Positions 17,786 to 32,000 of a stretch of DNA of 32,000 bases are shown piece by piece (the stretch's first letter is position 1; each line of letters opens with the position of its first letter). The notes under the pieces were generated by a model. It ran no database searches, was not told where the DNA came from, and saw only the letters and a program-made list of their open reading frames with translations. The position numbers and the translations under genes are program-made. Source of the stretch: Opitutales bacterium (GTDB lineage Bacteria; Verrucomicrobiota; Verrucomicrobiia; Opitutales; PNEW01); the NCBI GenBank assembly GCA_965219535.1, contig CBDCNV010000002.1:2220001-2252000 (forward strand), in the 5' to 3' direction.

Positions 17786-18604
17786 ATGACTGAAGAACAG
17801 AAGTTCTTTTTTGATCTCCGCGGGTGGATACTATTGCCAGCCGTGTTATCACCAGCCGATATTGATGAGATGAAAAAGGAGGTGTATGATGGCGCGAAGA
17901 ATAGCTATGAAGGGTCACTTCAGAAGCTGCTCGACCATCCGGCCATCGTGGGTATTCTGACCGAGCTTCTCGCGGAGCCCTCTTTTGTTTCGGACGATTA
18001 CTACAGCTTCCGTTGTGAAGGTTCTTTTACGACAGTCCGTCCTTCCGGATGGACTTTAACCGAGAATGCAAAAGTAAAAGGCGGTACCGCTACACCCCAT
18101 GTCGTGCGTCCTCCACAGCAGGCTAACGCCATGCGATACCAGGTAGAAGGAAACAAGATTTTTGCAGGATTGACCCGTGTCGTCTGGGAGCTTGAAGAGG
18201 TGAAGGCGGGACAGGGGGGTACTACTTTTCTCAGCGGATCACACAAAGCGCATTTCAACTATGGAGGACCCGACCCCTATGCGCCCAATGTCAGTGACTC
18301 ACCCTGGGAACAAAGCATTCGTGAGGCGATGGACGAATACAGCTGTCCAGCTGGTTCTGCCATCGTATTCACGGAAAGTCTCTTACATGCAGCCCATGAT
18401 TGGACCAATCCCGATAACCCCCGGTGCGCGGTGTTCAATTGCTACAACTCTCTATGGGCTCAATGGCACCTGCTCAACCTGGACAACGAGATAATAGAAA
18501 AAATGCCGGAAAAACGGCGCACCCTCTTTCGCGGTACCTGGGAATTAGGAGAGTTAAATGGTAGCCGCAATCACAGCTATGCGGAAAATAATAGAAGTCT
18601 TTAA
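17786..18604 (+). CDS. PhyH-like Fe(II)/2OG oxygenase family protein (divergent)
   Basis: 272 aa. It shows a PhyH-type N-terminus (FFFDLRGWILLPAVLSPADIDEM), GGTTFLSGSHK and LLHAAHDW. I could not locate a canonical HxD/E at the expected place; the sequence there reads TPHVVRP. Confidence 0.6.
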   Translation: MTEEQKFFFDLRGWILLPAVLSPADIDEMKKEVYDGAKNSYEGSLQKLLDHPAIVGILTELLAEPSFVSDDYYSFRCEGSFTTVRPSGWTLTENAKVKGGTATPHVVRPPQQANAMRYQVEGNKIFAGLTRVVWELEEVKAGQGGTTFLSGSHKAHFNYGGPDPYAPNVSDSPWEQSIREAMDEYSCPAGSAIVFTESLLHAAHDWTNPDNPRCAVFNCYNSLWAQWHLLNLDNEIIEKMPEKRRTLFRGTWELGELNGSRNHSYAENNRSL

Positions 18605-18630
18605 AACGCGATAGTGTATCAGCGCGTTTT
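18603..18630 (+). terminator. Intrinsic terminator after the 17786..18604 gene
   Basis: AAAACGCG-(12 nt loop)-CGCGTTTT overlaps the stop codon, giving an A-tract/T-tract flanked GC stem. Confidence 0.55.
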
Positions 18631-18721
18631 AGGTTAGAAAAGGTTCACGGTTCAGAGTTGAGTTGAATATTTTTTAAAATAAATATTTTAAATCCCTCCT
18701 ACCTTTGCTTGTAATAAAAAA

Positions 18722-20005
18722 ATGCGAATAACAAAGTTTGAAACGGTGCGTGTCGGCGAGCAGCCTCATATCATTTGGGTTCGGGTTCACACCGATACTG
18801 GCTTGATCGGCCTAGGCGAAAGCTTTTATGCAGCAAGCACCATTGAAAGCGCAGTTCACGACCACTTTGGTTGCATGCTCGTGGGCCGCGATCCGCTTGC
18901 CATAGAACGGCACTGGATGGATATGTTCAAACTGTCAGATCATGCCGGTTACGGCGGCGCTGAGATGCGGGCGATTTCGGCAATCGACATGGCCCTTTGG
19001 GATATCAAGGGGCAGCACGCCGGGGTGCCGATCTACGAGCTGTTGGGGGGTGGCGTCCGAAATAAAATTCGTGTCTATGCTACGGGCGGTCCTTACAATG
19101 GAGCGGGTGACCTGGCTAAAGAGCTCCTCAACGACGGTATCATCGCCATGAAGCATGGACCTACGATTACAATCGCAACCCCCACAGACGGCCAGCTTCT
19201 TCACCCGAAAGACCTGGACTTCGCCCTCAAGCCGATCCGCGAAATTCGCGATGCGGTCGGCGATGACATTATGATTGCCAATGACGGACACGGCAAATGG
19301 GCATTGCCACAGGCGATTCAGATTGCGGAGGCGATGGAGCCATACGACATCATGTGGCAGGAAGATCTGATGCCACTGATGAATCCCTCTGCCCTGCTGC
19401 GCCTGCAGGAAGCAACGTCAGCACCGGTCTGCATCTCGGAGCGCTTACTTAGCCGCTGGCAATTCCGGGAGTTCATTGAAAATGGTGCCGCCAGAATTGT
19501 CATGCCTGATCTGATCTGGACTGGCGGTATATCCGAAGTTTACAAGATTGCCGTGATGGCTTCCGCTCACCAGGTCCCGGTGGCACCTCATGATGCAACT
19601 GGGCCTGTGAATATCTTTGCCTGTGCCCAGATCTGCATGAGCATTCCAAATGCCATGATCATGGAACACGTTCGACCATTCTTCCAGGGTTGGTACAATG
19701 ACTTCGTTGAACCTAATCTGCCAATAGAACATGGCTGGCTTCATGCCCCCCAGGAACCGGGTATAGGCACCCGCCTTAAAGCGCAGGTGTTCGAGCGATC
19801 TGACGTCAGCGTAAAAGTGAGTGACGAGGACGTCCGAGTCGGCCTTCCAGATGAAAATTTTGCGTGCTACAGCGAAGACCAGCGCTTCAAGTCCGGTGCC
19901 TATACTACACCTGATGGGTGGACGGAAGAGATGGCTGCCGAGGTCCATGACATTTGGGCCTATCGAAAACAGCAGATTATTGAATCAGATAGTGATCAGT
20001 CATGA
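18722..20005 (+). CDS. Enolase-superfamily (mandelate racemase/muconate lactonizing enzyme family) dehydratase-like protein, paralog 1
   Basis: 427 aa. MRITKFETV...GLGES, AISAIDMALWDIKGQ..PIYELLGG, the metal-ligand-type positions IANDGHGKW, WQEDL and ISERL, and the His motif VAPHDATGP. Confidence 0.88.
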   Translation: MRITKFETVRVGEQPHIIWVRVHTDTGLIGLGESFYAASTIESAVHDHFGCMLVGRDPLAIERHWMDMFKLSDHAGYGGAEMRAISAIDMALWDIKGQHAGVPIYELLGGGVRNKIRVYATGGPYNGAGDLAKELLNDGIIAMKHGPTITIATPTDGQLLHPKDLDFALKPIREIRDAVGDDIMIANDGHGKWALPQAIQIAEAMEPYDIMWQEDLMPLMNPSALLRLQEATSAPVCISERLLSRWQFREFIENGAARIVMPDLIWTGGISEVYKIAVMASAHQVPVAPHDATGPVNIFACAQICMSIPNAMIMEHVRPFFQGWYNDFVEPNLPIEHGWLHAPQEPGIGTRLKAQVFERSDVSVKVSDEDVRVGLPDENFACYSEDQRFKSGAYTTPDGWTEEMAAEVHDIWAYRKQQIIESDSDQS

Positions 20006-21219
20006 AGATCACACAAATCAAAACCATCCGCGTAGCTCAGTTCCCCGATGTCATCTGGGTTGAGGTTTACACCGATGCCGGGATCGTTGGACTTGGCGAA
20101 ACCTGGTATGCCGCGACGACCGTCGAAGCAGCTATCCACGACTACTTCGGTCCTCTCCTTATCGACAAAGACCCTCACGAAGTCGAAGGCCACTGGCAAA
20201 CAATGTTTCGACTATCGGACCACGCGGGTTACGGCGGCGCAGAGCTGCGGGCGATATCAGCGCTCGATATCGCCCTGTGGGATATTAAAGGACAGGCACT
20301 GAAGCTGCCAATCTACGAGTTAATTGGTGGAGTCACTCGTCATCGGATTCGAGTTTACAACACCCTCGGTGTATATGGTGATATCAAAGACGGCTACGAT
20401 GTCTGGCGAGACCCGGTCGACGTCGCGAAGAGCCTGTTGGACGAGGGCATCAAAGGAATGAAGATGTCGCCGACCGATTTCATCGCTCGCTCATCAGAGG
20501 GTCAACTCCTGTTCAAGAAAGACCTCGATCGTGCGCTGAAGCCGATTCGAGATATCAGAGATGCACTGGGGATGGATATCCAGATTGCCAACGACGGGCA
20601 TGGTAAATGGAACCTGCCCAACGCGATTCGAATCGTGAGGGACATGGAACCGCTCAAGCCAATGTGGCACGAGGAGCTAATTTCGCCGTTGAACGAGGAC
20701 GCGCATCTTCAACTTCAGCGAGAGACGATAACGCCAATAGCCGTGGCAGAACGTCTGATGACTAGTTACCAGCACCGCCGTTTCATTGAGTCAGGCGCGG
20801 CACGTATCGTCATGCCGGATTTGACGTGGACTGGCGGTATTTCTGAGACCCGAAAGATCGCAATACTGGCGTCGACGCACCAGTTGCCGATTGCCCCTCA
20901 CGATTGTGTCGGCCCGGTGAATATGTTTGCCTGCGCCCATATCTGCGTGTCACAGCCAAATGTGATGATCATGGAATACAACCGGGCGATGGCCCAAGGT
21001 TGGTACGGCGAATTCGTGGATCCGATGTTTAAGGTCATAGATGGTTTTCTTATGGCACCTGAAGGATCAGGACTAGGCACGCGACTCAGGCCCGAGATTA
21101 GTGAACGTCCTGATGCAACGGTGCGATTCAGTAATGAACCCCGAAATTCCTGGTTGACCTCGCCACAGCGCTACACCTATCCCCCTGAAGACTTACGCAC
21201 AGAATTCTCTCAAGGATAA
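20002..21219 (+). CDS. Enolase-superfamily dehydratase-like protein, paralog 2
   Basis: 405 aa and collinear with the upstream paralog: IANDGHGKW, WHEEL, VAERL, IAPHDCVGP. Its ATG (20002..20004) overlaps the upstream TGA (20003..20005). Confidence 0.88.
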   Translation: MKITQIKTIRVAQFPDVIWVEVYTDAGIVGLGETWYAATTVEAAIHDYFGPLLIDKDPHEVEGHWQTMFRLSDHAGYGGAELRAISALDIALWDIKGQALKLPIYELIGGVTRHRIRVYNTLGVYGDIKDGYDVWRDPVDVAKSLLDEGIKGMKMSPTDFIARSSEGQLLFKKDLDRALKPIRDIRDALGMDIQIANDGHGKWNLPNAIRIVRDMEPLKPMWHEELISPLNEDAHLQLQRETITPIAVAERLMTSYQHRRFIESGAARIVMPDLTWTGGISETRKIAILASTHQLPIAPHDCVGPVNMFACAHICVSQPNVMIMEYNRAMAQGWYGEFVDPMFKVIDGFLMAPEGSGLGTRLRPEISERPDATVRFSNEPRNSWLTSPQRYTYPPEDLRTEFSQG

Positions 21220-21399
21220 ATAGGGCTCTACCTGTAGTGTTTATATACAAAAGCAGGATAAGATTTTCCCTTTACTAACTTAAAATTTTTATTTTTGAGT
21301 ATATCAAATTGATAATTGTACCGAGGACGAAGTCCGACATCTTCCATATCGACATTTGATTGACTCTCCCCTTATTCGAATAAATTAGAAGATTGTGCA

Positions 21400-22233
21400 A
21401 TGAGCATTTTAAGCAAAGATGATCGATCGTTTTGGGACGAGAACGGTTATGTTATCATTCACGACGCCGTTTCTCCAGAAAATATTAAAGCTACCTATGA
21501 TGAAGTTTGGAATTTTTTGGATATGCAACCCGACGACCGGGAGAGCTGGTATCCGGACCCGCCGCGGCTGGGCCTCGGAGTGAAGATGCATCATCACCAG
21601 GTTTTGTGGAACAACCGTCAGCACCCCCGCGTGCACCAGGCCTTTGCGGAAATCTGGGGAACGGAGAAGTTGTGGGTAAGTTTTGACCAGTGCAGCATGA
21701 GCCCCCCGCTCCGCCCGCATTTGAATGACGGCGGGAAATTACACTGGGATACCCCTTTAGAACCACCTATTCCGTTTTGCTGTCAAGGTGTGCTTTACCT
21801 GACAGACACTGAAGCGGATAGGGGAGCGTTCACCTGTGTGCCGGGGTTCCATCAAAAACTCGAAAGCTGGTTGGAGTCCTTGCCACCGGAGGCCGATCCC
21901 CGAAAGCAGGACCTGATGCGCCTCGGGGCCATACCTGTTCCCGGTAAAGCTGGTGACTTCATCATCTGGCACCATTTACTCCCTCATGGGGCAGGTGTGA
22001 ATACGGCGGACCAACCTCGGGTCGTGCAGTACATCTCCATGTTCCCAGCCCAGGAAGTGGATGAAGATTTTGTAAATTACCGCATTGACGCATGGAAAAA
22101 TCGTCTTGCAGGTGGAGGTCATTCCGGCACGAGGGTTGAGTTGGAAAAAGGAAAAGAATATGAAAATGGTCAGACCGCGGAATTGACCCCCTTAGGACGA
22201 AAATTGCTGGGTCTAGATTCTTGGGAGCGCTAA
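21400..22233 (+). CDS. PhyH-family Fe(II)/2OG dioxygenase, group I paralog 1
   Basis: 277 aa. FWDENGYVIIHDAVSPENI N-terminus, LHWD (HxD), CVPGFHQK and LPHGAG (distal His). Confidence 0.82.
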   Translation: MSILSKDDRSFWDENGYVIIHDAVSPENIKATYDEVWNFLDMQPDDRESWYPDPPRLGLGVKMHHHQVLWNNRQHPRVHQAFAEIWGTEKLWVSFDQCSMSPPLRPHLNDGGKLHWDTPLEPPIPFCCQGVLYLTDTEADRGAFTCVPGFHQKLESWLESLPPEADPRKQDLMRLGAIPVPGKAGDFIIWHHLLPHGAGVNTADQPRVVQYISMFPAQEVDEDFVNYRIDAWKNRLAGGGHSGTRVELEKGKEYENGQTAELTPLGRKLLGLDSWER

Positions 22234-22234
22234 T

Positions 22235-22334
22235 GCGCGTCAAAAAGTCAAAAGGTTGATGGCGGGGGAGAATCAGTGAACAGTGTATCGAGTGTATAGC
22301 CCGACATCTTCCACGGTAAACAGTGAACAGTGCT
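22235..22334 (+). repeat. Family C octamers followed by a family D heptamer array interrupted by a 28 bp insert
   Basis: GCGCGTCAAAAAGTCAAAAGG (22235..22255) comes first. Then CAGTGAA CAGTG, an insert at 22286..22313 containing CCGACATCTTCCA, and CGGTAAA CAGTGAA CAGTGCT. Confidence 0.75.
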
Positions 22335-22355
22335 GCCGCTTGTATTAAATTTTAA

Positions 22356-23090
22356 GGGTCATGCCTAGAATAGACACATATCAGATGTGTAAGCTATTCT
22401 AGACAAATGAGAAATAAGTATGTACATCGTTCAAAAATTTCTGAGGCCAAATTTCGGCAGTTAGTAAAGTGTTTTAGCTTGGATATGGAAGCGTTGAAGA
22501 TAGCCCAATTGACAGGATTGAATCGTAACACGGTCAACCGTTATTTGCGCTTGTTGCGGGAGCGTTTGTTGCAGCAATGTGCGCAGGCCTCGCCTTTTAG
22601 GGGGTCGGTGGAAATGGATGAGTCCTACTTTGGAGGCAAAAGAATTCCAGGGCAAAGAGGTCGGGGTGCATTCAAGAAAGTGCCCGTCTTCGGGTTGCTC
22701 AAGCGTAATGGGAAAGTCTATACCCAGGTTGTACGCAATGTCTCCAGAGCCGCTCTGCATGCGGTGATCCAAGGGAGAGTTACTTTTGACAGTGTGCTTT
22801 ATTCTGACGGGTGGCGTGCTTACAACGGCCTCGTGGATCTGGGCTATAAGAAGCATTACCGTGTCAATCACAACGACAACGAGTTTGCCCAGGGACACTC
22901 CCACATTAACGGGATTGAATCTTTTTGGGCTTTTGCTAAACTTCGATTGGCTAAGTTCAAAGGTCTTTCTCGTAGGACCTTCCAACTGCACCTCAAAGAA
23001 ACTGAATATCGCTTTAACCATCGTCATCAAAACCTCCATCGTAACATCCTTAATATGTGCTTAAGATACCCTCTGTTCTAGGCATGACCC
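22356..23090 (+). mobile_element. IS1595-family insertion sequence, IS1016 group-like, apparently intact
   Basis: 735 bp. Perfect 15 bp terminal inverted repeats are GGGTCATGCCTAGAA (22356..22370) and TTCTAGGCATGACCC (23076..23090). An 8 bp direct duplication AATTTTAA flanks it (22348..22355 and 23091..23098). It holds a single transposase ORF. Confidence 0.9.
22407..23081 (+). CDS. ISXO2-like (DDE_Tnp_IS1595) transposase
   Basis: 224 aa. VEMDESYFGGKR, LYSDGWRAYNGL and HINGIESFWAFAKLRLAKFKG are typical of IS1016/IS1595 transposases. Confidence 0.9.
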   Translation: MRNKYVHRSKISEAKFRQLVKCFSLDMEALKIAQLTGLNRNTVNRYLRLLRERLLQQCAQASPFRGSVEMDESYFGGKRIPGQRGRGAFKKVPVFGLLKRNGKVYTQVVRNVSRAALHAVIQGRVTFDSVLYSDGWRAYNGLVDLGYKKHYRVNHNDNEFAQGHSHINGIESFWAFAKLRLAKFKGLSRRTFQLHLKETEYRFNHRHQNLHRNILNMCLRYPLF

Positions 23091-23113
23091 AATTTTAAAT
23101 AATGGTTCAAATA

Positions 23114-23140
23114 GGTGGAACGTGCTGTCCCCAGCGTGTT
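23114..23140 (+). repeat. REP-like hairpin (family B), copy 3, with a T-rich tail (possible terminator)
   Basis: In GGTGGAACGTGCTGTCCCCAGCGTGTT the stem AACGTGCT/AGCGTGTT pairs with G-U wobbles. It is followed by TTGAAGTTATA. Confidence 0.6.
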
Positions 23141-23172
23141 TTGAAGTTATATAGAATAAATAATCTCCCTAC

Positions 23173-23225
23173 TTGTCATTGCGAAGGAGGCGGTAGCCGC
23201 GTCGCGTTGCTTTTCGCAATGACAA
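23173..23225. repeat. MITE-like element, family A copy 4 (short deletion derivative)
   Basis: TTGTCATTGCGAAGGAGGCGGTAGCCGCGTCGCGTTGCTTTTCGCAATGACAA. The termini and first 20 nt match copy 3. Confidence 0.7.
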
Positions 23226-23271: not shown

Positions 23272-24150
23272 ATGAGTGTATTAACTAAAGAGGATAAAAC
23301 CTTCTGGGAGGAGAACGGTTACGTTGTCATTCACAACGCCGTTCCACCAGAAAAGGTCAAAGCTGCAAAGGCTGCGGTTTGGGATTTTTTGGAAATGCAG
23401 CCCGACAACCCGGATAGTTGGTATCCCGACCCGCCCCGGAAGGGGATCATGGCAGAGATGTATCAGCACCAGACATTGTGGGACAACCGCCAGTACCCCC
23501 GCGTTCATCAAGCCTTTGCTGAAATCTGGGGAACAGAGCGATTGTGGGTAAGTATTGACCGCGCAAGCATGAACCCACCGGACCGCACATCCCGAAAAGA
23601 AGCTGGGAAATTGAACGGTGATTCCCCTTCAAAACAGCCAATTCCGTTGCCGTTGCATTGGGATATCCCTGTAGAACCACCCATACCGTTATGTGTTCAG
23701 GGGGTGCTCTATCTGACGGACACAGCAGCGGATGGGGGAGCGTTCATCTGTGTGCCGGGGTTCCATCGAAAACTCGAAGCGTGGTTGGCGAATTTACCGG
23801 CGGATGCCGATCCGCGTAAGCAGGATTTGATGAGTCTGGGTGCAACACTGATTCCAGGTAAAGCCGGTGATCTCATCATCTGGCATAGTTCTCTGCCTCA
23901 CGGGGCAGGTCTTAATACAGGAAGGTATCCACGGGTCGTGCAGTACATCACCATGTTCCCGGTGCAGGAAAAAGACGAAAATATTCTAACTCGTCGCGTT
24001 AACGCATGGCGTAATAACCTGGCAGGTGTGATCGTCGAAAGCACCGGCTGGAAGGGGGAATTACGTAAGGAAAAGGAACATGAACTAGGGCAAACGGCGA
24101 AGCTGTCACCGTTAGGGCGAAAGCTGTTGGGGTTGGATTTGTGGGAATAA
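23272..24150 (+). CDS. PhyH-family Fe(II)/2OG dioxygenase, group I paralog 2
   Basis: 292 aa and collinear with 21400..22233 and 26167..27060: FWEENGYVVIHNAVPPEKV, LHWD, CVPGFHRK, LPHGAG. Confidence 0.82.
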   Translation: MSVLTKEDKTFWEENGYVVIHNAVPPEKVKAAKAAVWDFLEMQPDNPDSWYPDPPRKGIMAEMYQHQTLWDNRQYPRVHQAFAEIWGTERLWVSIDRASMNPPDRTSRKEAGKLNGDSPSKQPIPLPLHWDIPVEPPIPLCVQGVLYLTDTAADGGAFICVPGFHRKLEAWLANLPADADPRKQDLMSLGATLIPGKAGDLIIWHSSLPHGAGLNTGRYPRVVQYITMFPVQEKDENILTRRVNAWRNNLAGVIVESTGWKGELRKEKEHELGQTAKLSPLGRKLLGLDLWE

Positions 24151-24174: not shown

Positions 24175-24193
24175 TCTAAAGCGGGGGAAAAGT

Positions 24194-24228
24194 CAGTGAA
24201 CAGTGAACGGTAAACAGTGAACAGTGGG
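24194..24228 (+). repeat. Family D heptamer array, copy 3
   Basis: CAGTGAA CAGTGAA CGGTAAA CAGTGAA CAGTGGG. Confidence 0.8.
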
Positions 24229-24238: not shown

Positions 24239-24315
24239 CGCGCGTCAAAAAGTCAACAGCCGTCGCCAAGGCTATGGCCGTCAAGAAAGGTCAAAAAGTC
24301 AAAATGTTGAAGATG
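24239..24315 (+). repeat. Family C octamer array, copy 5b (degenerate, with an internal non-repeat stretch)
   Basis: GCGCGTCAAAAAGTCAAC ... GTCAAGAAAGGTCAAAAAGTCAAAATGTTGAAGATG. Confidence 0.65.
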
Positions 24316-24398: not shown

Positions 24399-25241
24399 AT
24401 GTTAAGTCGCAGAAAAGGGTATTTGAAGCCGCGGACGGGCCGCGTTTCTAAAGCAAGTCGTCAGTTGGAGGACGAGGGTTACACACTTTTACGGAAGGTG
24501 CTTAGCGAAGAGGAAGTCAATAATCTCGCACAAGAAATCAATGAGGTTTATGATAAGCTGCCTCCCGATCGCCGGGCGAGCCTTGGTATTTTGGAAGAGG
24601 ATCAGGCTTTTCGTTATGAAATGTTCAATCGCAGTGCCTTGTGCCAGGAAGTTGTCGCCCATCCGAATATCTTGAAGACTATAGAACCTTTGTTGGGTGA
24701 AGATTGTCACGTTATTGCGAACACGAGCTGGCGCAATCCACCGGGTTCAGATCCGGAACATAAGGGCGGAGTCTGGCACATAGACGGCGGTCCACACATT
24801 CCACTTACCGATGATCAGGTATGGCCGAGCGACATCCCACATCCGATTTTTGCGATCGGTACACATATCTTTCTCAAGGATTGTCCAATGGAATGCGGCC
24901 CTACGGGCGTAATTCCCGGGAGCCATCTTTCAGGCAAACCGGCACCGCTCAATTATGATATGTCGGTGACTTGGAACAATGTTTCGGTAAAGCCCCTTCC
25001 TGCCAAAGCGGGCGATGTCGCGATGTTCGTCTCAGATATTTGGCACAGACGGATGCCAACATCCGAAGAAGATAGTGGCCGATTCTTTCTCCAGGTGCAT
25101 TACGCGCGAAGAGACATAGCGCAACGATTAAGACGGACAGCTGATGTCAATCAAGTCTCGCCACAAGCCATCGCGCGCATCAAAAGTGATCGTGAAAAAA
25201 CATTACTCGGGTTGCACCCCCCGAAATTCTATGACGGTTAA
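24399..25241 (+). CDS. PhyH-family Fe(II)/2OG dioxygenase (singleton type)
   Basis: 280 aa. LEDEGYTLLRKVLSEEEV N-terminus, WHIDGG (HxD), GVIPGSHLSG and IWHRRMP. Confidence 0.8.
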   Translation: MLSRRKGYLKPRTGRVSKASRQLEDEGYTLLRKVLSEEEVNNLAQEINEVYDKLPPDRRASLGILEEDQAFRYEMFNRSALCQEVVAHPNILKTIEPLLGEDCHVIANTSWRNPPGSDPEHKGGVWHIDGGPHIPLTDDQVWPSDIPHPIFAIGTHIFLKDCPMECGPTGVIPGSHLSGKPAPLNYDMSVTWNNVSVKPLPAKAGDVAMFVSDIWHRRMPTSEEDSGRFFLQVHYARRDIAQRLRRTADVNQVSPQAIARIKSDREKTLLGLHPPKFYDG

Positions 25242-25259: not shown

Positions 25260-26015
25260 ATGGAATTAAAAGGAAAAGCAGCTTTAATCACGGGCGGCAA
25301 CAGCGGAATCGGTAAAGCTATCGCATACGCCTTGGCGGAAAGGGGAACTGAAGTACTGATAAGTGGCCGACGGGAAGACCAGAACCGCGCGGTTGCCGAA
25401 GCGATCAGTAAAAAAACCGGGACCCGGGTAGAGGCGGTAACCGCCGATGTCAGTCTTGAGGAAGATTGTGAAATGATGGTGCGCCGAACAATTGAACTGT
25501 TTGGAAAAATCGATATCTGTGTTAATAGCGCCGGGGTCTCAACGGGACCCCAATTTTCGGACCTTTCCACTGAAGTCTTTGATCAAGTACTGAAAACCAA
25601 TTTATACGGAGCGTTCTGGTGTTCACGAGCCGCATATAACGCGATGCGTAAGAATAAACTAAGTTCTCCGGATGATATTCGTGGTTATATCATAAACATA
25701 TCATCGGTTGTAGGACTGGAAGCTTACGCGCGAAGTGGGGCTGGGAGCGGCGTTTACAGCGCTTCCAAATTCGGCATGATGTCGCTCAACCAGGGCATGT
25801 CTGGTTCGGGGCAGAAGGAGTTGATAAAAGTTACCGCGATCTGCCCGGCAATGGTTGCTACGCCAATGACTGACGAATGGAGAAACAACAACAGTAAAGA
25901 AGGTGATGAATTTATTGAACCAGAAGATGTAGCAGAAACGGTCCTTTACCTCACACGCCTCTCACGTGCCGTCTGGCCCGTGCAGGAAGTTTTACCCCGA
26001 CGTGAAGTGGAGTAG
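25260..26015 (+). CDS. Short-chain dehydrogenase/reductase (SDR)
   Basis: 251 aa. Cofactor motif ITGGNSGIGKA, NSAG, catalytic-type NISS and YSASK (YxxxK). It starts 18 nt after the upstream dioxygenase stop. Confidence 0.88.
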   Translation: MELKGKAALITGGNSGIGKAIAYALAERGTEVLISGRREDQNRAVAEAISKKTGTRVEAVTADVSLEEDCEMMVRRTIELFGKIDICVNSAGVSTGPQFSDLSTEVFDQVLKTNLYGAFWCSRAAYNAMRKNKLSSPDDIRGYIINISSVVGLEAYARSGAGSGVYSASKFGMMSLNQGMSGSGQKELIKVTAICPAMVATPMTDEWRNNNSKEGDEFIEPEDVAETVLYLTRLSRAVWPVQEVLPRREVE

Positions 26016-26086: not shown

Positions 26087-26115
26087 ATCGTAATGAAATC
26101 AACTATCTTTACCTT

Positions 26116-26157
26116 GAACCCTGAACCCTGAACCCTGAACCCTGAACCCTGAACCCT
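26116..26157 (+). repeat. Perfect tandem heptamer (GAACCCT)x6
   Basis: Six exact GAACCCT units ending 9 nt upstream of the ATG at 26167. Confidence 0.95.
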
Positions 26158-26166
26158 GCAACGTGC

Positions 26167-27060
26167 ATGTCCGTATTAAGTAAAGAAGATAGAGCATTCT
26201 GGGACGAGAATGGTTACGTTATCATTCACGAAGCTGTCCCCCCGGAAAATATAAAAGCTGCATCAGATGCGATTTGGGATTTTTTGGAAATGCAACCCGA
26301 CGATGAGGAGAGTTGGTATCCCGATCCGCCCAGCAAAAGTATAGGGGTCAAACTGTATCATCACCAGGCTATATGGGACAATCGTCAGTGCCCTCGCGTA
26401 TATCAAGCCTTTGCAGAGATCTGGGGAACGGATCATTTGTGGGTTAGTTTTGACCAGGCCAGCATGAGCCCACCGGATCGTTCTCACCCAAAAGATTCTG
26501 GAAAACTGTTCAGTGAGAACTCTTCAAAACAACCCATTCCGATGCACTGGGATATCCCATTAGAACGACCATTGCCATTTGCTGTTCAAGGGGTGCTCTA
26601 TCTGAAAGACACAACAGCGGAAATGGGAGCGTTTACCTGTGTGCCTGGATTCCATCGCAAGACAGAAGCATGGTTAGAAAACTTACCTGCGGATGCCAAT
26701 CCGCGTAAGCAAAATCTCATGAACCTCGACGTAAAGCCGATTTCCGGTAAAGCTGGAGACCTCATCATTTGGCAAGGTGCACTGCCTCACGGTGCAGGTC
26801 AGAATATAGCGAGGCATCCCCGGGTTGTGCAGTATATTAGTATGTTCCCGGCAAAGGAAGAGGACGAAGAAACGCGAAATTATCGCATCGATTCATGGCG
26901 CAATAACCTGGTAGGTGGTGGGGCTTGGGGTGTGATGCACGAGTTACCTTTCAGCAAGAAAGTGGAGTTGCACAAGGAAAAGGAACATGCGATAGGTCAG
27001 AGAGCAGAGTTGACCCCCTTAGGCCGAAAACTGTTGGGATTGGATTCCTGGGAACGCTAA
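26167..27060 (+). CDS. PhyH-family Fe(II)/2OG dioxygenase, group I paralog 3
   Basis: 297 aa. FWDENGYVIIHEAVPPENI, MHWD, CVPGFHRK, LPHGAG, and the same C-terminal LTPLGRKLLGLDSWER as paralog 1. Confidence 0.82.
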   Translation: MSVLSKEDRAFWDENGYVIIHEAVPPENIKAASDAIWDFLEMQPDDEESWYPDPPSKSIGVKLYHHQAIWDNRQCPRVYQAFAEIWGTDHLWVSFDQASMSPPDRSHPKDSGKLFSENSSKQPIPMHWDIPLERPLPFAVQGVLYLKDTTAEMGAFTCVPGFHRKTEAWLENLPADANPRKQNLMNLDVKPISGKAGDLIIWQGALPHGAGQNIARHPRVVQYISMFPAKEEDEETRNYRIDSWRNNLVGGGAWGVMHELPFSKKVELHKEKEHAIGQRAELTPLGRKLLGLDSWER

Positions 27061-27108
27061 CGCGCGTCAAAAAGTCAAAAGGTCAAAAGGTCAAAAAGTT
27101 GAAGACGG
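27061..27108 (+). repeat. Family C octamer array, copy 6 (best preserved)
   Basis: CGCGCGTCAAAAAGTCAAAAGGTCAAAAGGTCAAAAAGTTGAAGACGG begins at the first base after the stop codon. Confidence 0.85.
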
Positions 27109-27133
27109 ACTCCTAAACTCAACATAACTTTTA

Positions 27134-27157
27134 AACGCGCTAGGGACAGCCCGCTCC
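27134..27157 (-). repeat. REP-like hairpin (family B), copy 5
   Basis: The minus strand reads GGAGCGGGCTGTCCCTAGCGCGTT, matching the proximal arm at 7151..7173. Confidence 0.7.
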
Positions 27158-27265
27158 GCAGTAAACTAGTTAGTATCAAAATTCTCTCTTGTGCCTTTTG
27201 TGGCTATCTTTTCTTTTACTCAGTTACCTCTGCGCCTCTGCGGTCCAATCTTCTTCCCCAATCAG

Positions 27266-27290
27266 AAATCCGCATTCCGACATCCGCAAT
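27266..27290 (-). repeat. Family F repeat, right copy (inverted)
   Basis: The reverse complement is ATTGCGGATGTCGGAATGCGGATTT. It sits 6 nt past the GH32-like gene stop. Confidence 0.7.
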
Positions 27291-27295
27291 TGTTA

Positions 27296-28750
27296 TCAGT
27301 CTACTTCTGGGGCCCAGATACGATTCTCTTTGGCTTCGAGGAAACCCTGGTTGGTGGGTTTGAGTTTCCAGATTTCCAGTTTTTTGATTCTTGTCGGGTT
27401 GTTGCCCCATATGCCGAAGAAGGTATACGCTTTTAGACTGTTACCTTCATCTTTGTAAGTCATATGGGCGGTCAATGCCGCCTGACGGCCGTTGATGAAG
27501 ACTTCCACCAGGTACTTATCGACGAAGATACGCAGGTCAAAATCTTCCCCATCCGGGAGATTGGCGACAGAAAACGGTGCCTCGGTTTCGCCGATGCATA
27601 CAGTACCTGTCTCGGGACGAATCAGAATAAGGAGGCCTTCACTGTTTTCGCCGGCGAACAACCGGAAGCCGAAACGCCTGCGGTCAGCCGCTGCTCTTTC
27701 CATGGAGACGCGCACCTCGAAAGCATCCGTCTCGATTTCGGCGATGGACAGCTCCTCTGACGAAATCACTTCGAGGTCGTTGAATATTTGTTCTTCGTGC
27801 CGAAGCGTCTCGAGCTCACGCAGTGGTTGAATATTCAGGCTTCCATCCTCGTGAAGACTCAGCTCACGTGGTAATGACTGGATCGACTTCAGGTTGATTT
27901 CCGGATCGAGGGTCGTAAGCCATGACCACATTACACGGCGACCATCTGCTGTGAGGACACTTTCCGGTGCAAAAAAGTCACGGTAGCAAGGCTCTGTGAG
28001 TGACTGACCGAGCCGTCTCCAATTCATACGTCCATGGGTGTGAGGAACGAACTGCTCGGCTTTGGTATCCCAGTCGCCGAGGTAGTAGCGGCAGCCGATC
28101 GTATGGCTGATACACAGCAGCATCCACTGGTTTTCAAACGGGTAGAAATGGGCGCACGAAAGATCTTCGCCGATCGCAACATCCGGCATGTCGTGCTTCA
28201 TGAATGGCCCGACATAAGTCCAGTTGATTAGATCAGTGGACTTGCACAGCGGAACATCGTCGGCAGCGGAATAGGCGTAATAAGTGTCGTCGATGCGAAA
28301 ACAGTCAGGATCGTGGGTTAAACCGATATCCTTTCCGTCGGGACCACCTTTCGGCAGTATCGGATAGGGTTTCTCCCATTCACTGAGCTGATTGTCCTTT
28401 GCGACCGCGATGTACGTTTGATTCGGTTCTGCCAAACCCGCGTAGATGGCCGCATGTTTTCCCTCCGCGGTAATGAATCCGGTGCCGCTGAACATGCCGG
28501 TAGCGGTAAAGGAAGGTTGCAGCTTGGTGGACTGCCATGTCCAGTGCAGCATGTCGGGACTGGTGACGTGGACAAAAGAGTAGGAAGTTTTATTCTGAAA
28601 AAGATGTCGCAGAATGTAGTGCAGGTGGTAGACACCGTCCAAGTAATAGGCGACGTTAGGATCGCCCGGTGCACTGTCACCACCTGGGTGCATCAAGTGG
28701 TAGTTGAGTGTCAAGTCGTCGGAAACGATTTCTTCATCAGTGTGTTTCAT
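27296..28750 (-). CDS. Glycoside hydrolase family 32-like protein (beta-propeller plus C-terminal beta-sandwich), cytoplasmic
   Basis: 484 aa. YHLMHPGGDSAPGDPNVAYYLDGVYHLHY resembles the GH32 WMNDPNG...G.YHLFYQ block. The C-terminal FDLRIFVDKYLVEVFINGRQAALT resembles the GH32 beta-sandwich signature. No signal peptide. Confidence 0.65.
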   Translation of the reverse strand: MKHTDEEIVSDDLTLNYHLMHPGGDSAPGDPNVAYYLDGVYHLHYILRHLFQNKTSYSFVHVTSPDMLHWTWQSTKLQPSFTATGMFSGTGFITAEGKHAAIYAGLAEPNQTYIAVAKDNQLSEWEKPYPILPKGGPDGKDIGLTHDPDCFRIDDTYYAYSAADDVPLCKSTDLINWTYVGPFMKHDMPDVAIGEDLSCAHFYPFENQWMLLCISHTIGCRYYLGDWDTKAEQFVPHTHGRMNWRRLGQSLTEPCYRDFFAPESVLTADGRRVMWSWLTTLDPEINLKSIQSLPRELSLHEDGSLNIQPLRELETLRHEEQIFNDLEVISSEELSIAEIETDAFEVRVSMERAAADRRRFGFRLFAGENSEGLLILIRPETGTVCIGETEAPFSVANLPDGEDFDLRIFVDKYLVEVFINGRQAALTAHMTYKDEGNSLKAYTFFGIWGNNPTRIKKLEIWKLKPTNQGFLEAKENRIWAPEVD

Positions 28751-28913
28751 TAGTGTGTCCTCTCAATTCTATTCATTATGGAAAATTCAATCTTTTCAAA
28801 AGGAGATGATAGGTTAAAATATTTCACAAGAAAATATTCGACCATATTCTATATCAATTACAATAAGATCGACATGGTTCCTTATGAATTTGCCTCCTTA
28901 GTTACCATTCGAT

Positions 28914-29753
28914 TTATTTTTTTATTAAAGAGGACAAATCATTTCCTTGTGGTCTGGAGTGACAGGTCCAATAATTATATCGATTCTTTCCTCTACATAG
29001 AATCGATTTTTCTGCATAATTTTTCTGCTTATTATCAATAACGTGGACTTCAGGAGGACAGTAGCGAATGGTGAGTCCGCATCGCCTGCGCATTGAATCA
29101 TTTGAGGTTGAACCGTGAACCATCATATCGGCATAAAGAGAAATTTCCCCCGCTTTTAAATTATTAAATACGGGTTTGCCATACCGTGTTACATTTGTGA
29201 TTTCCTGCTCTAATACTGCGGGTTTATCAGTTTTTTCCCAATTGAAATGCCCGAGCTTATGCGTGCCGGGAATAAACTGCATGGCCGCGTTATCAGGATC
29301 GGCATCGTCGATCGCAAGCCATACGGTAACGGTTCGCGATGGGCTTATCGGCCAATAGGATGCATCCTGATGCCAGGGAACTACCTTTTTGTCCTGCGGC
29401 AGTTTACAAAAATAGTGAGTCCCCCAGGCGATGATGTCGGGCCCGATCAGATCTTCCACGTAATCGAGTATTCTGGAGTCCGTTACTATATCCCAGATTT
29501 CTCCACAATGGACATGATAACCATTAATCGCATAGGCCAAATCGCCCTTGTGTTTCCCATTTAGGAGATTGAGCAAATGATCAAAGTAGTCCCGGTTCTT
29601 TATTACCTCCGCGTCAGAGAAAATTCTTAATGGTTTCAAATAACCATTTTTATTATAGAAGCTTATCTGCTCAACCGAAAGACTCTTAGGGTGGCCATTG
29701 ATCACCGGTTTAAATGACAGATCTTTTTTTTCTAAAACAGATTTGTTTTGCAC
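28914..29753 (-). CDS. PhyH-family Fe(II)/2OG dioxygenase (classical PWHQD type)
   Basis: 279 aa. FYNKNGYLKPLRIFSDAEV, PWHQDASYW (HxD), QFIPGTHKLG and MVHGSTSN. Confidence 0.85.
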   Translation of the reverse strand: MQNKSVLEKKDLSFKPVINGHPKSLSVEQISFYNKNGYLKPLRIFSDAEVIKNRDYFDHLLNLLNGKHKGDLAYAINGYHVHCGEIWDIVTDSRILDYVEDLIGPDIIAWGTHYFCKLPQDKKVVPWHQDASYWPISPSRTVTVWLAIDDADPDNAAMQFIPGTHKLGHFNWEKTDKPAVLEQEITNVTRYGKPVFNNLKAGEISLYADMMVHGSTSNDSMRRRCGLTIRYCPPEVHVIDNKQKNYAEKSILCRGKNRYNYWTCHSRPQGNDLSSLIKK

Positions 29754-29785
29754 AATTTAATTCAGTATCAAATATTAAATGATGG

Positions 29786-29806
29786 AGCTTTGAACATTTC
29801 AAAGCT
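29786..29806. promoter_or_regulatory. Palindrome in a divergent promoter region
   Basis: AGCTTTGAA-CAT-TTCAAAGCT has perfect 9 bp arms. It lies between the divergent dioxygenase genes starting at 29753 (minus) and 29872 (plus). Confidence 0.35.
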
Positions 29807-29871
29807 AAGTTGTATTTTAGACATTGCGCATTGGGCTTAGCAAAACATTTAATTTATAGAGGAATCGCTAA

Positions 29872-30645
29872 TTGAAACTCAAGGAATCAGAAGTTCAATC
29901 ATTTCAACAAGAGGGATACTTGAAGGTCCCTCATCGGGTAATCGAGGAAGAACACCTCCAACGTCTTGTCAGATCTTATGACGCGGTATTTAATGACCAT
30001 GAAGTAGGAGAGGGTGTACGCAACCTTTCGAAAGCGGAATCGACAACTGAAGAAACCGTGGAAACAGATGACGGGAAAATGTGGCAGGTAATGGGGATGT
30101 GGAAAAGAAGTGAGGATTTCCAGCAACTACTCTATCACAAACCGTTACTAGACATTGCTGAGAGTCTGATTGGTGGAAACATACAGTTATATCATGACCA
30201 GGCACTTTATAAGCCGGCAAACAACGGCGGGCCTATTCCGTGGCATCAAGACAATGCCTATTGGCGTTGTCAGCCGGCAGGCCTGGTCAGTATCTGGATT
30301 GCTCTTGACGATGCCGATGAAGAAAACGGTTGTATGAATGTCATCCCCGGCAGTCACGCGAGAGGTGCGTTGGAGCATTCGCGGGCTAAGACGGGCGATG
30401 GGAATACATCAGCTATATTAATGACATCCCAGGTAGATGATAGCAAAGCAGTTCCCATACCTCTGACCGCGGGCCATGCCATGGTTCATCACTGTTTAAT
30501 GTTCCATACCACGCGACCAAACTATTCCAACCGTGACCGGCGGGCAATGGTCATTCACTATATGCCAGTGGGCACCCGCAATGGTGAAGGGGAGTTGTTG
30601 GAAGAGGAAGACTATCCGCTATTGAGAGGAAAGAACGTTAATTAG
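29872..30645 (+). CDS. PhyH-family Fe(II)/2OG dioxygenase (classical PWHQD type)
   Basis: 257 aa with a TTG start in the ORF track. FQQEGYLKVPHRVIEEEHL, PWHQDNAYW, MNVIPGSHARG and LMFHTTRPN. Confidence 0.82.
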   Translation: MKLKESEVQSFQQEGYLKVPHRVIEEEHLQRLVRSYDAVFNDHEVGEGVRNLSKAESTTEETVETDDGKMWQVMGMWKRSEDFQQLLYHKPLLDIAESLIGGNIQLYHDQALYKPANNGGPIPWHQDNAYWRCQPAGLVSIWIALDDADEENGCMNVIPGSHARGALEHSRAKTGDGNTSAILMTSQVDDSKAVPIPLTAGHAMVHHCLMFHTTRPNYSNRDRRAMVIHYMPVGTRNGEGELLEEEDYPLLRGKNVN

Positions 30646-30881
30646 ACAAGTAAGCAGGTCCTTCGGCGACGCTCAGGGCAGGCAGGTGTCGGGTGTCGGA
30701 AGAGATAGTCGCTATCACGTTTATGATCAATCTGGATTCTGCAATTGATTCGGCCACCGCTTAGAGCTAATGGAGATATATGATGGACAATGAAAACGAC
30801 GGTCAATAGACTGGATTGGAACTGGATGTTTATTTGAATTCCATGCACGCTTAATTTTACACGAAAGATAAAAATGGAAGA

Positions 30882-31658
30882 TTGCCGATGCTAACCAAAC
30901 AGCAAGTTACATTTTTTAATACCTTTGGTTTTATCATCCTCAGAAAAGTGTTTTCGGAAAATGAACTCGCTATTATTAATGATGAGTTTAATCGAGGGGC
31001 TATAGATAAGCGGCAAATCCACCCGACGCTTACTAACTGGTCTAACCTTGGCACAGAAGCATCTTTCTTAAGCGAGTTGCCGGAAGATCCGCGAATATGT
31101 GTAACGGCAGAACAGTTATTTGGAGAAGACGCGGTAGCGATGTCATCGAACAGTAGCCGCCGCGTGGGCGACACACACTGGCATACTGATCGGCCTGACC
31201 CCCATTCTTACGGAATGAAATTTTCCGCTTATCTGCAGCCTATCGATGCCAGTAATGGCGCGCTTCGTGTCATACCGGGATCACACAAGAAACCCTATAT
31301 AGATAATCTGAAAAAAATGGAATTGAATACTCCGGATATAAGTGTGCCCGCGTATACCTGTGAGTCATATCCAGGAGACATTGTCCTTTTCAACTTAGCT
31401 ATATGGCATTCCAGTTGGGGTGGATCCTCTGACCGCCGCGTGTGTACCATGGACTTTTACAAAAATCCTAAAACACCTGAAGAAGAAGAGGCTATTTATG
31501 ATCAGGTGAAAATCGATAAAGAAGTTTACGCAAAACTCCGTACTAGCGGGACGAATTTCCATCCCCAATGGGTAGCCAATTCTAAAAACAGTTCCCGACG
31601 TCAGCGCTGGATCGATTGGTTGCGGAAATATGAGTATGTCGAATCGAATGCGACCTGA
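30882..31658 (+). CDS. PhyH-family Fe(II)/2OG dioxygenase (group III)
   Basis: 258 aa. FFNTFGFIILRKVFSENEL, HWHTDR (HxD), LRVIPGSHKKP and IWHSSWGG. Confidence 0.8.
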   Translation: MPMLTKQQVTFFNTFGFIILRKVFSENELAIINDEFNRGAIDKRQIHPTLTNWSNLGTEASFLSELPEDPRICVTAEQLFGEDAVAMSSNSSRRVGDTHWHTDRPDPHSYGMKFSAYLQPIDASNGALRVIPGSHKKPYIDNLKKMELNTPDISVPAYTCESYPGDIVLFNLAIWHSSWGGSSDRRVCTMDFYKNPKTPEEEEAIYDQVKIDKEVYAKLRTSGTNFHPQWVANSKNSSRRQRWIDWLRKYEYVESNAT

Positions 31659-31731
31659 ATAGTTTTGACCAGCTTAGTGAAGGTATTTATCTTCGTCCTT
31701 TCTGATTCCCAATCTCAAGTTAACTAAAATT

Positions 31732-32000
31732 ATGATACAGGAAAATCACAGTCTTACAGAAAAGCAGATCCAACATTTTGAGACCTTTGGTTTTTTGGTC
31801 CGACGCCAAGTGTTTAGTCCAGAGGAAATTGAACGTATTGACGGAGAGTTCGAAAAACATTTAGTCGAAATGAAAGAGGAGTATGAGCAAAAGAAAGAAC
31901 GGCCCTGGCCTAATTGGTCAAATCTGATTCCGGAGACTCCTTATATTGCCAATCTATTGGAAGATCCACGTATCTGTGTGCCCACCGAACAATTGCTGGG
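31732..32000 (+). CDS. PhyH-family dioxygenase (group III paralog), 5' partial at the window edge
   Basis: My own translation from ATG 31732 is MIQENHSLTEKQIQHFETFGFLVRRQVFSPEEIERIDGEF...WSNLIPETPYIANLLEDPRICVPTEQLLG. It is collinear with the N-terminus of 30882..31658 (WSNLGTEASFLSELPEDPRICVTAEQLFG) and still open at the window end. Confidence 0.75.
   Translation, partial: MIQENHSLTEKQIQHFETFGFLVRRQVFSPEEIERIDGEFEKHLVEMKEEYEQKKERPWPNWSNLIPETPYIANLLEDPRICVPTEQLL

Follow-up and report, generated by a model that had tools for sequence, protein, structure and literature searches.

A dense, strain-variable array of PhyH-family oxygenase genes interleaved with putative sugar-acid catabolism genes in an Opitutales bacterium

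In this study, we have analysed a 32,000-nucleotide stretch of DNA from an Opitutales bacterium (NCBI GenBank assembly GCA_965219535.1, contig CBDCNV010000002.1, positions 2,220,001 to 2,252,000 of the forward strand; hereafter, the window), which carries an array of genes encoding PhyH-family Fe(II)/2-oxoglutarate (2OG) oxygenases interleaved with genes for a short-chain dehydrogenase/reductase (SDR), a GH32-like hydrolase, and enolase-superfamily (MR/MLE) dehydratases. An exact-sequence look-up showed that the window is part of a 486,629-bp metagenome contig (ENA ERZ25072670), of which 42 kb were read, and that it is also represented in a second assembly of 42 kb; gene order is identical in these two independent assemblies of the window strain (the 487-kb and 42-kb contigs). 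At least 11 PhyH genes lie within about 20 kb, from position 17786 to approximately 37.7 kb on the window scale. They make up 11 of the approximately 35 genes in the 42-kb stretch and 11 of approximately 21 consecutive genes in the array itself, a share far above the rates for Poribacteria (approximately 2%) and for other genomes (<0.05%) given in the sections of Kamke et al. (2014, PMC3909097) used here.

A sequence-only reading of the window had proposed nine PhyH-family open reading frames (ORFs), and a Pfam scan bore this out. Eight complete ORFs matched PF05721 (PhyH) at 31 to 125 bits, all over the gathering score of 22 bits. Three of them form group I, with the motif WYPDPP…HWD, and are located on the plus strand at 21400..22233 (75 bits; H115/D117/H196, R207), 23272..24150 (61 bits; H129/D131/H210, R221), and 26167..27060 (56 bits; H127/D129/H208, R219). 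The gene at 24399..25241 (plus strand, 63 bits; H127/D129/H216, R228) is a singleton. Two genes of the WHQD type are found at 28914..29753 (minus strand, 91 bits; H128/D130/H213, R224) and 29872..30645 (plus strand, 125 bits; H125/D127/H212, R223), the latter being the most canonical member of the array. Group III (FxTFGF…HWHTD) begins on the plus strand with the ORF opening at 30882 (51 bits), which gene callers start at 30888 (30888..31658; H99/D101/H174, R184); a 258-amino-acid (aa) TTG-start form of this ORF was set aside, since an exact look-up gave no match and the callers use 30888. The eighth complete ORF, at 17786..18604 (plus strand, 31 bits), is discussed below. The ninth, a second group III gene at 31732..32000 (plus strand), is cut by the window end, and its 89 N-terminal codons had no Pfam match alone; at full length on the parent contig (locus L004, 10845-11696) it encodes 283 aa, contains HPD, and has a precomputed PhyH match, as do two further PhyH genes past the window.

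The parent contig continues the array. Downstream of the ninth PhyH gene come the tenth, which encodes 291 aa, and then a gene for an 857-aa protein in which a NanM-like mutarotase beta-propeller is fused to a sodium-solute symporter (SSF). These are followed, in order, by the eleventh PhyH gene (encoding 280 aa), a gene for a small cupin, one for a 746-aa protein with an Ig-like domain (Pfam Ig_7), and a second NanM-like/SSF fusion. The earlier statement that no permease lies among the oxygenase genes therefore holds inside the window but not beyond it, where the two symporter genes are located 2 to 9 kb past position 32000.

The residues expected of Fe(II)/2OG oxygenases are retained throughout the array. 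The HxD motif was present in 10 of the 11 PhyH proteins (8 in the window and 3 on the extension were compared), the exception being the 17786 product, as had been noticed from the sequence alone. Common to all 11 were the 'PGSH' histidine, the distal histidine, and, 10 to 12 residues after the latter, an Arg that we take to bind the C5 carboxylate of 2OG. This Arg occupied the same aligned column in 8 of the 11 proteins, and in the three of group III it was shifted by one column toward the N terminus; it was invariant in the family alignments of group I (A3, R219) and of the 17786 type (A4, R213), and in A3 the His, Asp, His, and Arg columns were all invariant. None of the 11 ORFs is disrupted and each retains its catalytic residues, and the PhyH genes are predicted to encode catalytically competent Fe(II)/2OG oxygenases. 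Inspection by eye revealed no hydrophobic N termini or signal peptides, in agreement with the initial reading, and the proteins look cytoplasmic.

The 17786 protein contains no HxD/E anywhere in its sequence. A profile built from 23 diverse members of its family (A4) matched the hygromycin oxygenase HygX (4xcb/4xc9) at E=1.7e-17 over positions 11-221, nearly the full length, and this search aligned E197/H201 of the family with the 'NEALMH' segment of HygX. Across the 23 members H105 is invariant, the position two residues on is mostly Gly (Val in the window subfamily), and Glu197 is invariant, four residues before a nearly invariant His201; R131 sits at the column of HygX Lys137. The proposed metal ligands are H105 (in H-V-V), E197, and H201 (E-x3-H), and the proposed 2OG-binding Arg is R213. 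The proximal-His loop was offset by approximately 8 residues in the HMMER alignment to HygX, and the assignment of H105 rests on its invariance and on an hhalign comparison of the family with group I, which placed H105 on the HxD histidine at 88% probability. An AlphaFold2 model of the protein computed from a shallow alignment (A2) reached a pLDDT of 39. The lacking carboxylate had first suggested a halogenase, an assignment that was dropped after the HygX profile match and the E-x3-H motif were found. We conclude that 17786 encodes a HygX-type variant with a predicted, relocated ligand set and is neither a dead enzyme nor a halogenase.

The family to which the 17786 protein belongs is small, with 526 representatives at E<=0.001 among 1.84 billion proteins, and very conserved: the best 120 clusters of homologues were 70 to 99% identical. 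Homologues annotated as Poribacteria or Latescibacteria fall at 70 to 85% identity, and such identity across proteins annotated to different phyla indicates strong purifying selection. A Latescibacteria homologue lies in a tight run of GFO_IDH, PL14-like, PhyH, and YdjC-deacetylase genes, in which the PhyH/YdjC-deacetylase pair mirrors the adjacency of a CE4 deacetylase gene and 17786 in the window. In five loci with 72%-identical homologues (L088 and L090-L093; the same cluster level carries Poribacteria annotations), a gene for a 481-aa protein with no Pfam match was always found 19 nt downstream, followed by an ICL/PEP-mutase-family gene and a citrate-synthase-like gene; together with the 17786-type gene, these constitute a conserved module.

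The grouping first proposed, into at least four sequence types, was largely correct. Group I is tight (63 to 66% pairwise identity) and group III is real, since the 30888 and 31732 products are 38% identical and a third group III gene, just beyond the window, encodes a protein 64% identical to the latter. The 'PWHQD' pair (28914 and 29872), however, shows just 32 to 33% identity, and these two have a motif in common without being close paralogs. The remaining pairs are at most approximately 30% identical; therefore, at least six deep PhyH subfamilies are represented. Most of the PhyH diversity is therefore old, and local duplication accounts for part of the array only.

An NCBIfam scan of all of the PhyH proteins placed none of them over any equivalog cutoff. 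Top scores were 39.6 bits for the ectoine hydroxylase EctD (TIGR02408; cutoff, 336.5), 81.7 bits for the Fe/2OG halogenases (TIGR01762; cutoff, 226; the 28914 protein, which retains Asp130), and 51.4 bits for the PhnY-type phosphonate hydroxylases (NF052437; cutoff, 500); assignments as EctD, halogenase, PhnY-type enzyme, or pentalenolactone hydroxylase were all dropped as lying under the NCBIfam cutoffs.

Comparison with solved structures was informative for some of the subfamilies. The best relative of the 28914 protein in the PDB was SyrB2 (1.9e-15), with PAHX and EctD close behind (all 1e-14 to 1e-15); a halogenase function was ruled out here too, as the protein retains the Asp of WHQD and its 'chlorinating enzyme' score was 82 against the cutoff of 226. 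The 29872 protein matched EvdO2 (1.2e-21), the uncharacterised monooxygenase 6ZYK (7e-19), and, as third-best, PHYHD1 (2.8e-18). It is also 27% identical over its full length to an active 2'-O-methyl-nucleoside demethylase from Poribacteria (pairwise E=3e-22), to which it appears related, at a distance too great for the same substrate to be assumed, and no nucleoside-salvage genes were found near 29872. For the 30888 protein there were three PDB matches, all weak (EctD, a methyltransferase-fused oxygenase, and AviO1).

The two remaining types gave less. Group I has 1,045 homologues of the 26167 protein, some of them annotated as Poribacteria; a single-sequence search against the PDB gave no match, and a profile search gave weak matches to SnoK and PAHX. 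An AlphaFold2 model of the 26167 protein (mean pLDDT, 80; pTM, 0.83) predicts a double-stranded beta-helix fold. All Foldseek matches to this model were PhyH-type 2OG oxygenases at a probability of 1.00; they were generic PhyH folds only (TlxI, FtmOx1, EctD, KanJ, YbiU, and HygX; TM, approximately 0.5), and transfer of function from them was rejected. A phmmer search against the PDB found no relative of the 24399 protein, which weakly matched TIGR04436, a 'putative 2OG-Fe(II) oxygenase' (NCBIfam model name SpoChoClust_3). For the three subfamilies whose homologues were searched (group I, the 17786 type, and the 29872 type), Poribacteria-annotated homologues were found at 52 to 74% identity, and one of the three, the 17786 type, also had Latescibacteria-annotated homologues.

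The nearest characterised relatives of several subfamilies (HygX, EvdO2, PHYHD1, AviO1, and the 2'-O-methyl-ribose demethylases) attack sugar C-H bonds, although the distances are too large for a substrate to be transferred. It can be asked whether the array instead acts on noncarbohydrate small molecules of a host or of seawater, such as betaines, osmolytes such as ectoine, phosphonates, modified nucleosides, branched lipids, or halogenated alkaloids, with the sugar-acid genes as mere neighbours. EctD, phytanoyl-CoA hydroxylase, amino-acid hydroxylases, and PhnY-type phosphonate hydroxylases do all appear among the weak matches, and some poribacterial PhyH genes are linked to phnY/phnZ according to the sections of PMC3909097 used here. 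The best structural relatives of three subfamilies nevertheless act on sugars, and no phnZ (HD-domain), ectABC, or acyl-CoA genes were present among the window and extension genes scanned. We consider this explanation possible but less likely than a role in sugar catabolism, and evidence from gene order that bears on it is given below.

Since the closest solved relatives of several members are the hygromycin and orthosomycin oxygenases HygX, EvdO2, and AviO1, the locus might also be envisioned as a tailoring cluster for an oxidised oligosaccharide natural product of an orthosomycin-like or aminoglycoside-like kind. Such a cluster would be expected to look different: among the window and extension genes scanned there were no glycosyltransferase, NDP-sugar, aminotransferase, resistance, or export genes, and, as had been stated earlier, no NRPS, PKS, or RiPP gene. 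Identity to the biosynthetic enzymes is low and the neighbours are of catabolic type (acid-sugar dehydratases, an aldolase, a glycoside hydrolase, a deacetylase, and uptake symporters), which makes a biosynthetic role very unlikely.

These neighbours begin with an HpcH/HpaI-family aldolase of the 2-keto-3-deoxy-acid type at 15894..16853 (minus strand; PF03328, 51.7 bits). Its NCBIfam matches were weak and all sub-cutoff (HpaI, 2-keto-3-deoxy-L-rhamnonate aldolase, and GarL), and it is a probable catalyst of the last step of a nonphosphorylative sugar-acid pathway. A CE4 polysaccharide/oligosaccharide deacetylase gene (16904..17686, plus strand; PF01522, 70.6 bits) lies directly upstream of 17786; a 53%-identical CE4 protein is encoded in a Latescibacterota locus (L007) that also has PhyH genes. 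Two enolase-superfamily dehydratase genes follow on the plus strand, both matching Pfam MR_MLE_N and MR_MLE_C: a galactonate-dehydratase-like acid-sugar dehydratase at 18722..20005 (245 bits against the NCBIfam galactonate dehydratase cutoff of 311) and a second at 20002..21219 (242 bits, again sub-cutoff). Their overlap of 4 nt suggests translational coupling. The SDR gene (25260..26015, plus strand; adh_short, 165 bits) starts 19 nt after the 24399 PhyH gene, with which it is probably cotranscribed. The GH32-like glycoside hydrolase gene (27296..28750, minus strand; Pfam Glyco_hydro_32N and 32C), whose product has no signal peptide by eye, has the 28914 PhyH gene upstream of it on the same strand. 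The interleaving of PhyH genes with SDR, GH32-like, and MR/MLE genes, its retention in a close relative, and the 19-nt gap before the SDR gene all argue against a noncarbohydrate role in which these genes would be bystanders.

The dehydratases, SDR, GH32-like hydrolase, and CE4 deacetylase had all been recognised from the sequence alone, and the HpcH/HpaI aldolase can now be added; what that list omitted was an IS1595 transposase gene (22407-23081). The proposed connection to sulfated glycans fared less well. The upstream flank of the island consists of ggt, bipA, and then the sulfatase gene, and because the housekeeping genes bipA and ggt cut the sulfatase off from the island, the link to sulfated glycans is weak. 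Preceding the sulfatase is a split gene for a peptide-type solute-binding protein: the adjacent ORFs 7352-8119 and 8119-9414 match different parts of one SBP_bac_5 model, and 7352-9414 looks like one gene split by a frameshift, whether as a pseudogene or through a sequencing error.

The GH32-like protein also provided a point of comparison. The host of the window is placed in the Opitutales (Verrucomicrobiota) because this protein is 94% identical to one encoded on OY829953.1, the 4.49-Mb chromosome of a metagenome-assembled genome (MAG) labelled 'MAG: Opitutales bacterium'. We compared the window strain with the examined region of OY829953.1 around the locus. Common to both is a backbone of ggt, HpcH, CE4, the 17786 ortholog, the two MR dehydratases, group I copies, the 24399 type, the SDR, a further group I copy, the GH32-like gene, the 29872 type, NanM-SSF, and the eleventh PhyH gene. 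Shared genes were 89 to 97% identical at the nucleotide level (92% for the 23272 ortholog), and orthologs were 72 to 98% identical at the protein level (first dehydratase, 97%; second dehydratase, 98%; SDR, 96%).

Against this stable backbone, the PhyH content differs. There are three group I copies in the window strain and five in the relative; the 29872 type is single in the former and tandemly duplicated in the latter; the 28914 gene had no counterpart (no DNA match) in the examined region of the relative; and the three tandem group III genes of the window strain were not found in that region save for one 290-bp remnant. The relative has a sulfatase gene between ggt and HpcH and an alpha/beta-hydrolase gene after the 17786 ortholog, both absent from the window strain. 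The window strain has a complete 735-bp IS1595-family insertion sequence (22356..23090, plus strand) that is absent from the relative, where the site measures 188 bp rather than the 916 bp of the window. This element lies between two group I genes and carries 19-nt terminal inverted repeats (22356-22374 and 23072-23090) and a transposase ORF (224 aa; DDE_Tnp_IS1595, 101 bits). The low GC content of 28914 (0.42, versus 0.52 and 0.48 for its flanking genes) and its lack of a counterpart in the relative are consistent with recent acquisition. Since PhyH copy number and content differ between two such close strains, we conclude that the PhyH array is turning over quickly while the backbone remains stable.

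The 17786 ortholog is intact in the window strain; in the relative it is divided between two frames (locus L086, 4013-4829; residues 1-148 and 136-272, at 97% and 93% identity), which reflects either a frameshift or an assembly error. Taken with the insertion sequence inside the array, this split might suggest that the array consists of paralogs in decay, or is an artefact of assembly, and has no present function. That is extremely improbable, given the 11 of 11 intact ORFs with catalytic residues, the identical gene order in two independent assemblies, the protein-level identity of the orthologs, and the strong purifying selection on the 17786 family.

The spacers of the island contain unusual repeats. 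Tandem arrays of the octamer GTCAAAAR (11 window matches versus 0.21 expected) are located at 15879-15893, 17748-17778, 22239-22253, 24244-24258, 24290-24304, and 27066-27096 and, on the parent contig, at approximately 41331-41361 (L004, 20444-20474). They mostly start a few bases from a stop codon, run in the same sense as the gene upstream, and are limited to the window strain and its close relative, none having been found in the other loci examined; they may be RNA-level signals, regulator binding sites, or recombination substrates. Further short tandem repeats are found in these spacers, at 17673-17705, 22299-22331, 24193-24226, and 26111-26165; they comprise a heptamer, GTGAACA/GTAAACA, with six matches versus 0.03 expected, and (CCTGAAC)x6, which lies immediately upstream of the 26167 PhyH gene. 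Several of the spacer repeats lie near indel junctions between the two strains.

These features raise the possibility of a recombination hot spot at which PhyH genes of unrelated function are gathered and duplicated and which would imply no common pathway. The strain differences in PhyH content, the sulfatase and alpha/beta-hydrolase genes found in the relative only, the insertion sequence found in the window strain only, the lineage-specific octamer and heptamer repeats, and the GC content of 28914 all accord with this idea, as do subfamilies so divergent (at most approximately 30% identical) that most did not arise here by duplication. The stable non-PhyH backbone, however, argues for selection on the ensemble, and catalytic residues are kept in all copies. 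As an account that would do away with a shared pathway, the hot spot is quite unlikely; as a description of how the array changes, it is compatible with a catabolic role rather than exclusive of it.

To see how far the arrangement extends, we used the GH32-like gene as a synteny anchor in 80 loci, one per genome, with 10-kb flanks. PhyH genes were present in the flanks of 14 of the 80 loci and in none of the other 66, many of which carry sulfatase genes instead. Nine PhyH genes were found in the close relative, two to six per locus in MAGs of Latescibacterota, Spirochaetia, Caldilineaceae, Opitutales, and Trueperaceae, and a single one in six further loci; in one Poribacteria and one Spirochaetia locus, the PhyH gene lies directly beside the GH32-like gene. 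The MAGs in which PhyH genes recur beside or close to GH32-like genes thus belong to the Latescibacterota, Spirochaetia, Caldilineaceae, Trueperaceae, Poribacteria, Lentisphaeria, and Opitutales; as the association is confined to a minority of MAGs, PhyH was rejected as a general partner of the GH32-like family.

The GH32-like family itself is conserved at 55 to 74% identity across Verrucomicrobiota, Planctomycetota, Chloroflexota, Bacteroidota, and others, and the next-best matches to the window protein came from MAGs of Latescibacterota, Opitutales, Spirochaetia, Trueperaceae, Dehalococcoidales, Poribacteria, and Caldilineaceae. A Planctomycetota locus (L048) has the gene between two NanM/SSF-like genes. 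The conservation of a family that has no signal peptide, its sulfatase neighbours, and its NanM/SSF neighbours together suggest a substrate other than ordinary fructans.

Whether the oxygenase genes keep the same company in related genomes, a check that the sequence-only reading had proposed, depends on the distance considered. The backbone is retained in OY829953.1, where no scattering of the paralogs was seen, but in Poribacteria the group I and 17786 homologues occur in unrelated contexts. The Poribacteria group I homologue sits in a mostly housekeeping context, adjoined just by a GFO_IDH gene and one other PhyH gene, and the 17786-type homologues keep company with ICL/PEP-mutase and citrate-synthase-like genes, suggesting organic acids over glycans. 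Both contexts favour noncarbohydrate substrates, whereas the Latescibacteria 17786 homologue, located in a carbohydrate operon, speaks against them.

Poribacteria are almost exclusively sponge associated, according to the sections of Kamke et al. 2014 (PMC3909097) used here. As homologues of the PhyH and GH32-like proteins come from Poribacteria and the other taxa named above, the host of the window is probably a sponge symbiont, and the array can be regarded as a place where the PhyH expansion known from such symbionts is locally concentrated.

Our preferred explanation, which we hold only tentatively, is that the locus contains a fast-evolving array of C-H hydroxylases within a cytoplasmic sugar and sugar-acid catabolic island, acting on imported modified sugar-like molecules. 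Small carbohydrate-like molecules would be imported by the adjacent mutarotase-fused Na+/solute symporters, after which the GH32-like hydrolase and the CE4 deacetylase would trim them in the cytoplasm. Each PhyH enzyme would then use O2 and 2-oxoglutarate to hydroxylate one C-H next to O or N on a modified sugar, and the unstable hemiacetal or hemiaminal would collapse, resulting in the loss of an O- or N-linked alkyl group, the cleavage of an ether, or oxidation that yields a keto or lactone product. The SDR, the pair of enolase-type acid-sugar dehydratases, and the HpcH-type aldolase could then take over the products and convert them to pyruvate and an aldehyde, and many divergent PhyH paralogs would cover many different modifications. 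In this scheme, family membership, active-site residues, gene order, conservation in one relative, and turnover are observed, and the substrate class, the order of steps, and the sponge origin are what we infer. The catabolic-island reading first put forward thus stands as far as PhyH genes with intact residues lie among sugar-acid genes, and falls short in that sequence comparison assigns no substrate. The chemistry that it suggested does have precedent, in the demethylation of 2'-O-methyl ribose (PMC12709175) and in HygX and EvdO2, which act on sugars.

Several observations weigh against this explanation. All of the PhyH proteins here score under the equivalog cutoffs, and none is more than approximately 27% identical to a characterised enzyme, which is why chemistry and substrate had to be extrapolated; for group I (three to five copies) and for the 24399 type, there is no characterised relative that is informative. 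The conservation of the neighbourhood is shallow, being strong only at short evolutionary range, and in PhyH-rich genomes some adjacency to sugar genes is expected by chance. In Poribacteria, the 17786 homologues are located with ICL/PEP-mutase, citrate-synthase-like, and 481-aa genes and not with glycan genes. Most genes of the array have their own 100- to 250-nt spacer, and consensus searches for promoter- or terminator-like sites gave no more matches than shuffled sequence did, so cotranscription is not established. Finally, the sponge origin is deduced solely from the taxa of homologues.

A broader proposal, which we regard as speculative and rather unlikely, is that sponge-associated bacteria of several phyla (Opitutales, Poribacteria, Latescibacterota, Spirochaetia, and Caldilineaceae) share and exchange a PhyH toolkit for the cytoplasmic, O2- and 2OG-dependent removal or oxidation of host or algal sugar modifications (O-methyl, N-alkyl, ether, and possibly ester). 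If this were true, a new class of oxidative carbohydrate-active enzymes would stand beside the glycoside hydrolases and sugar-acid dehydratases, with the highly conserved HygX-like family (H-x-V/G…E-x3-H) as a core member. Even one enzyme found to dealkylate or oxidise a modified sugar would add oxidative 2OG chemistry to marine glycan degradation and would make the abundance of PhyH genes in symbionts of oxygenated sponge tissue easier to explain. The locus offers a compact, testable case, with 11 intact enzymes of at least six subfamilies interleaved with a sugar-acid pathway and symporters and with a comparison strain at hand, and the small, very conserved family with the HygX-type triad is a specific enzymological target. 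We view it as an experimental entry point into an unsolved question rather than as a new kind of system.

Among known enzymes, HygX (hygromycin B orthoester synthase; PDB 4XC9/4XCA/4XCB) is closest in design to the 17786 protein. Its triad is H-X-G…E-X3-H, in which the acid is relocated and Lys137 fills the gap (2026 review, PMC13374393). The 17786 protein has the same relocated acid and a basic residue, R131, at the Lys137 column, but Val in the place of the Gly that follows the proximal His, a difference that its closest relatives share. HygX belongs to aminoglycoside biosynthesis, and the context of 17786 is catabolic; because no aminoglycoside biosynthesis genes lie nearby, a HygX-type orthoester reaction is unlikely. 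The Fe(II)/2OG halogenases SyrB2, CytC3, and WelO5 resemble the 17786 family in having no carboxylate at the HxD position; unlike them, the 17786 family obtains a Glu from E-x3-H, as does HygX, and carries a bulky Val where room for the halide is needed. The 28914 protein has SyrB2 as its best solved relative but keeps the Asp.

Nonphosphorylative acid-sugar pathways (for galactonate, fuconate, and rhamnonate) resemble the island in combining one or more MR/MLE dehydratases with a 2-keto-3-deoxy-acid aldolase, and the island has an SDR as well; its dehydratase and aldolase scores, however, are all under the equivalog cutoffs. To our knowledge, known pathways of this type contain no battery of 2OG oxygenases.

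A closer precedent for the proposed chemistry is provided by PhyH-family enzymes, one of them from Poribacteria, that O-demethylate 2'-O-methyl ribonucleosides (Stonkus et al. 2025, NAR, PMC12709175). These PHYHD1/FJS demethylases share the PhyH family and the WHQD motif with the 29872 protein, and cytoplasmic catabolic removal of a sugar O-methyl group is theirs; yet 29872 is just 27% identical to the Poribacteria enzyme, so that orthology is not established, and the other ten PhyH proteins are more distant. Our search of the literature on PhyH in sponge, Opitutales, sulfatase, or metagenome settings yielded nothing beyond this paper and Kamke et al. 2014, and no later paper was found that assigns a function to most poribacterial-type PhyH genes.

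The Poribacteria expansion remains the most extensive counterpart, and the island cannot be called undescribed in the sense originally intended. In the sections of Kamke et al. (2014, PLoS One, PMC3909097) used here, PF05721 is the most abundant Pfam domain in Poribacteria (>1.9% of genes, versus <0.05% in all nonporibacterial genomes), its 305 sequences fall into 193 clusters at 60% identity, and their functions are unassigned save for the phnY/phnZ pair. A large and diverse PhyH battery in the sponge-symbiont guild had therefore already been described, and the expansion itself is not new. The same Pfam family and many deeply divergent paralogs with no assignable function are seen in the window; what those sections report, however, are genome-wide counts and clusters, whereas the window presents a dense tandem battery in an Opitutales host. 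New in the present study are the Opitutales host, the dense tandem array in a sugar-acid island with symporters, the strain-level turnover, and the recognition of a HygX-type family.

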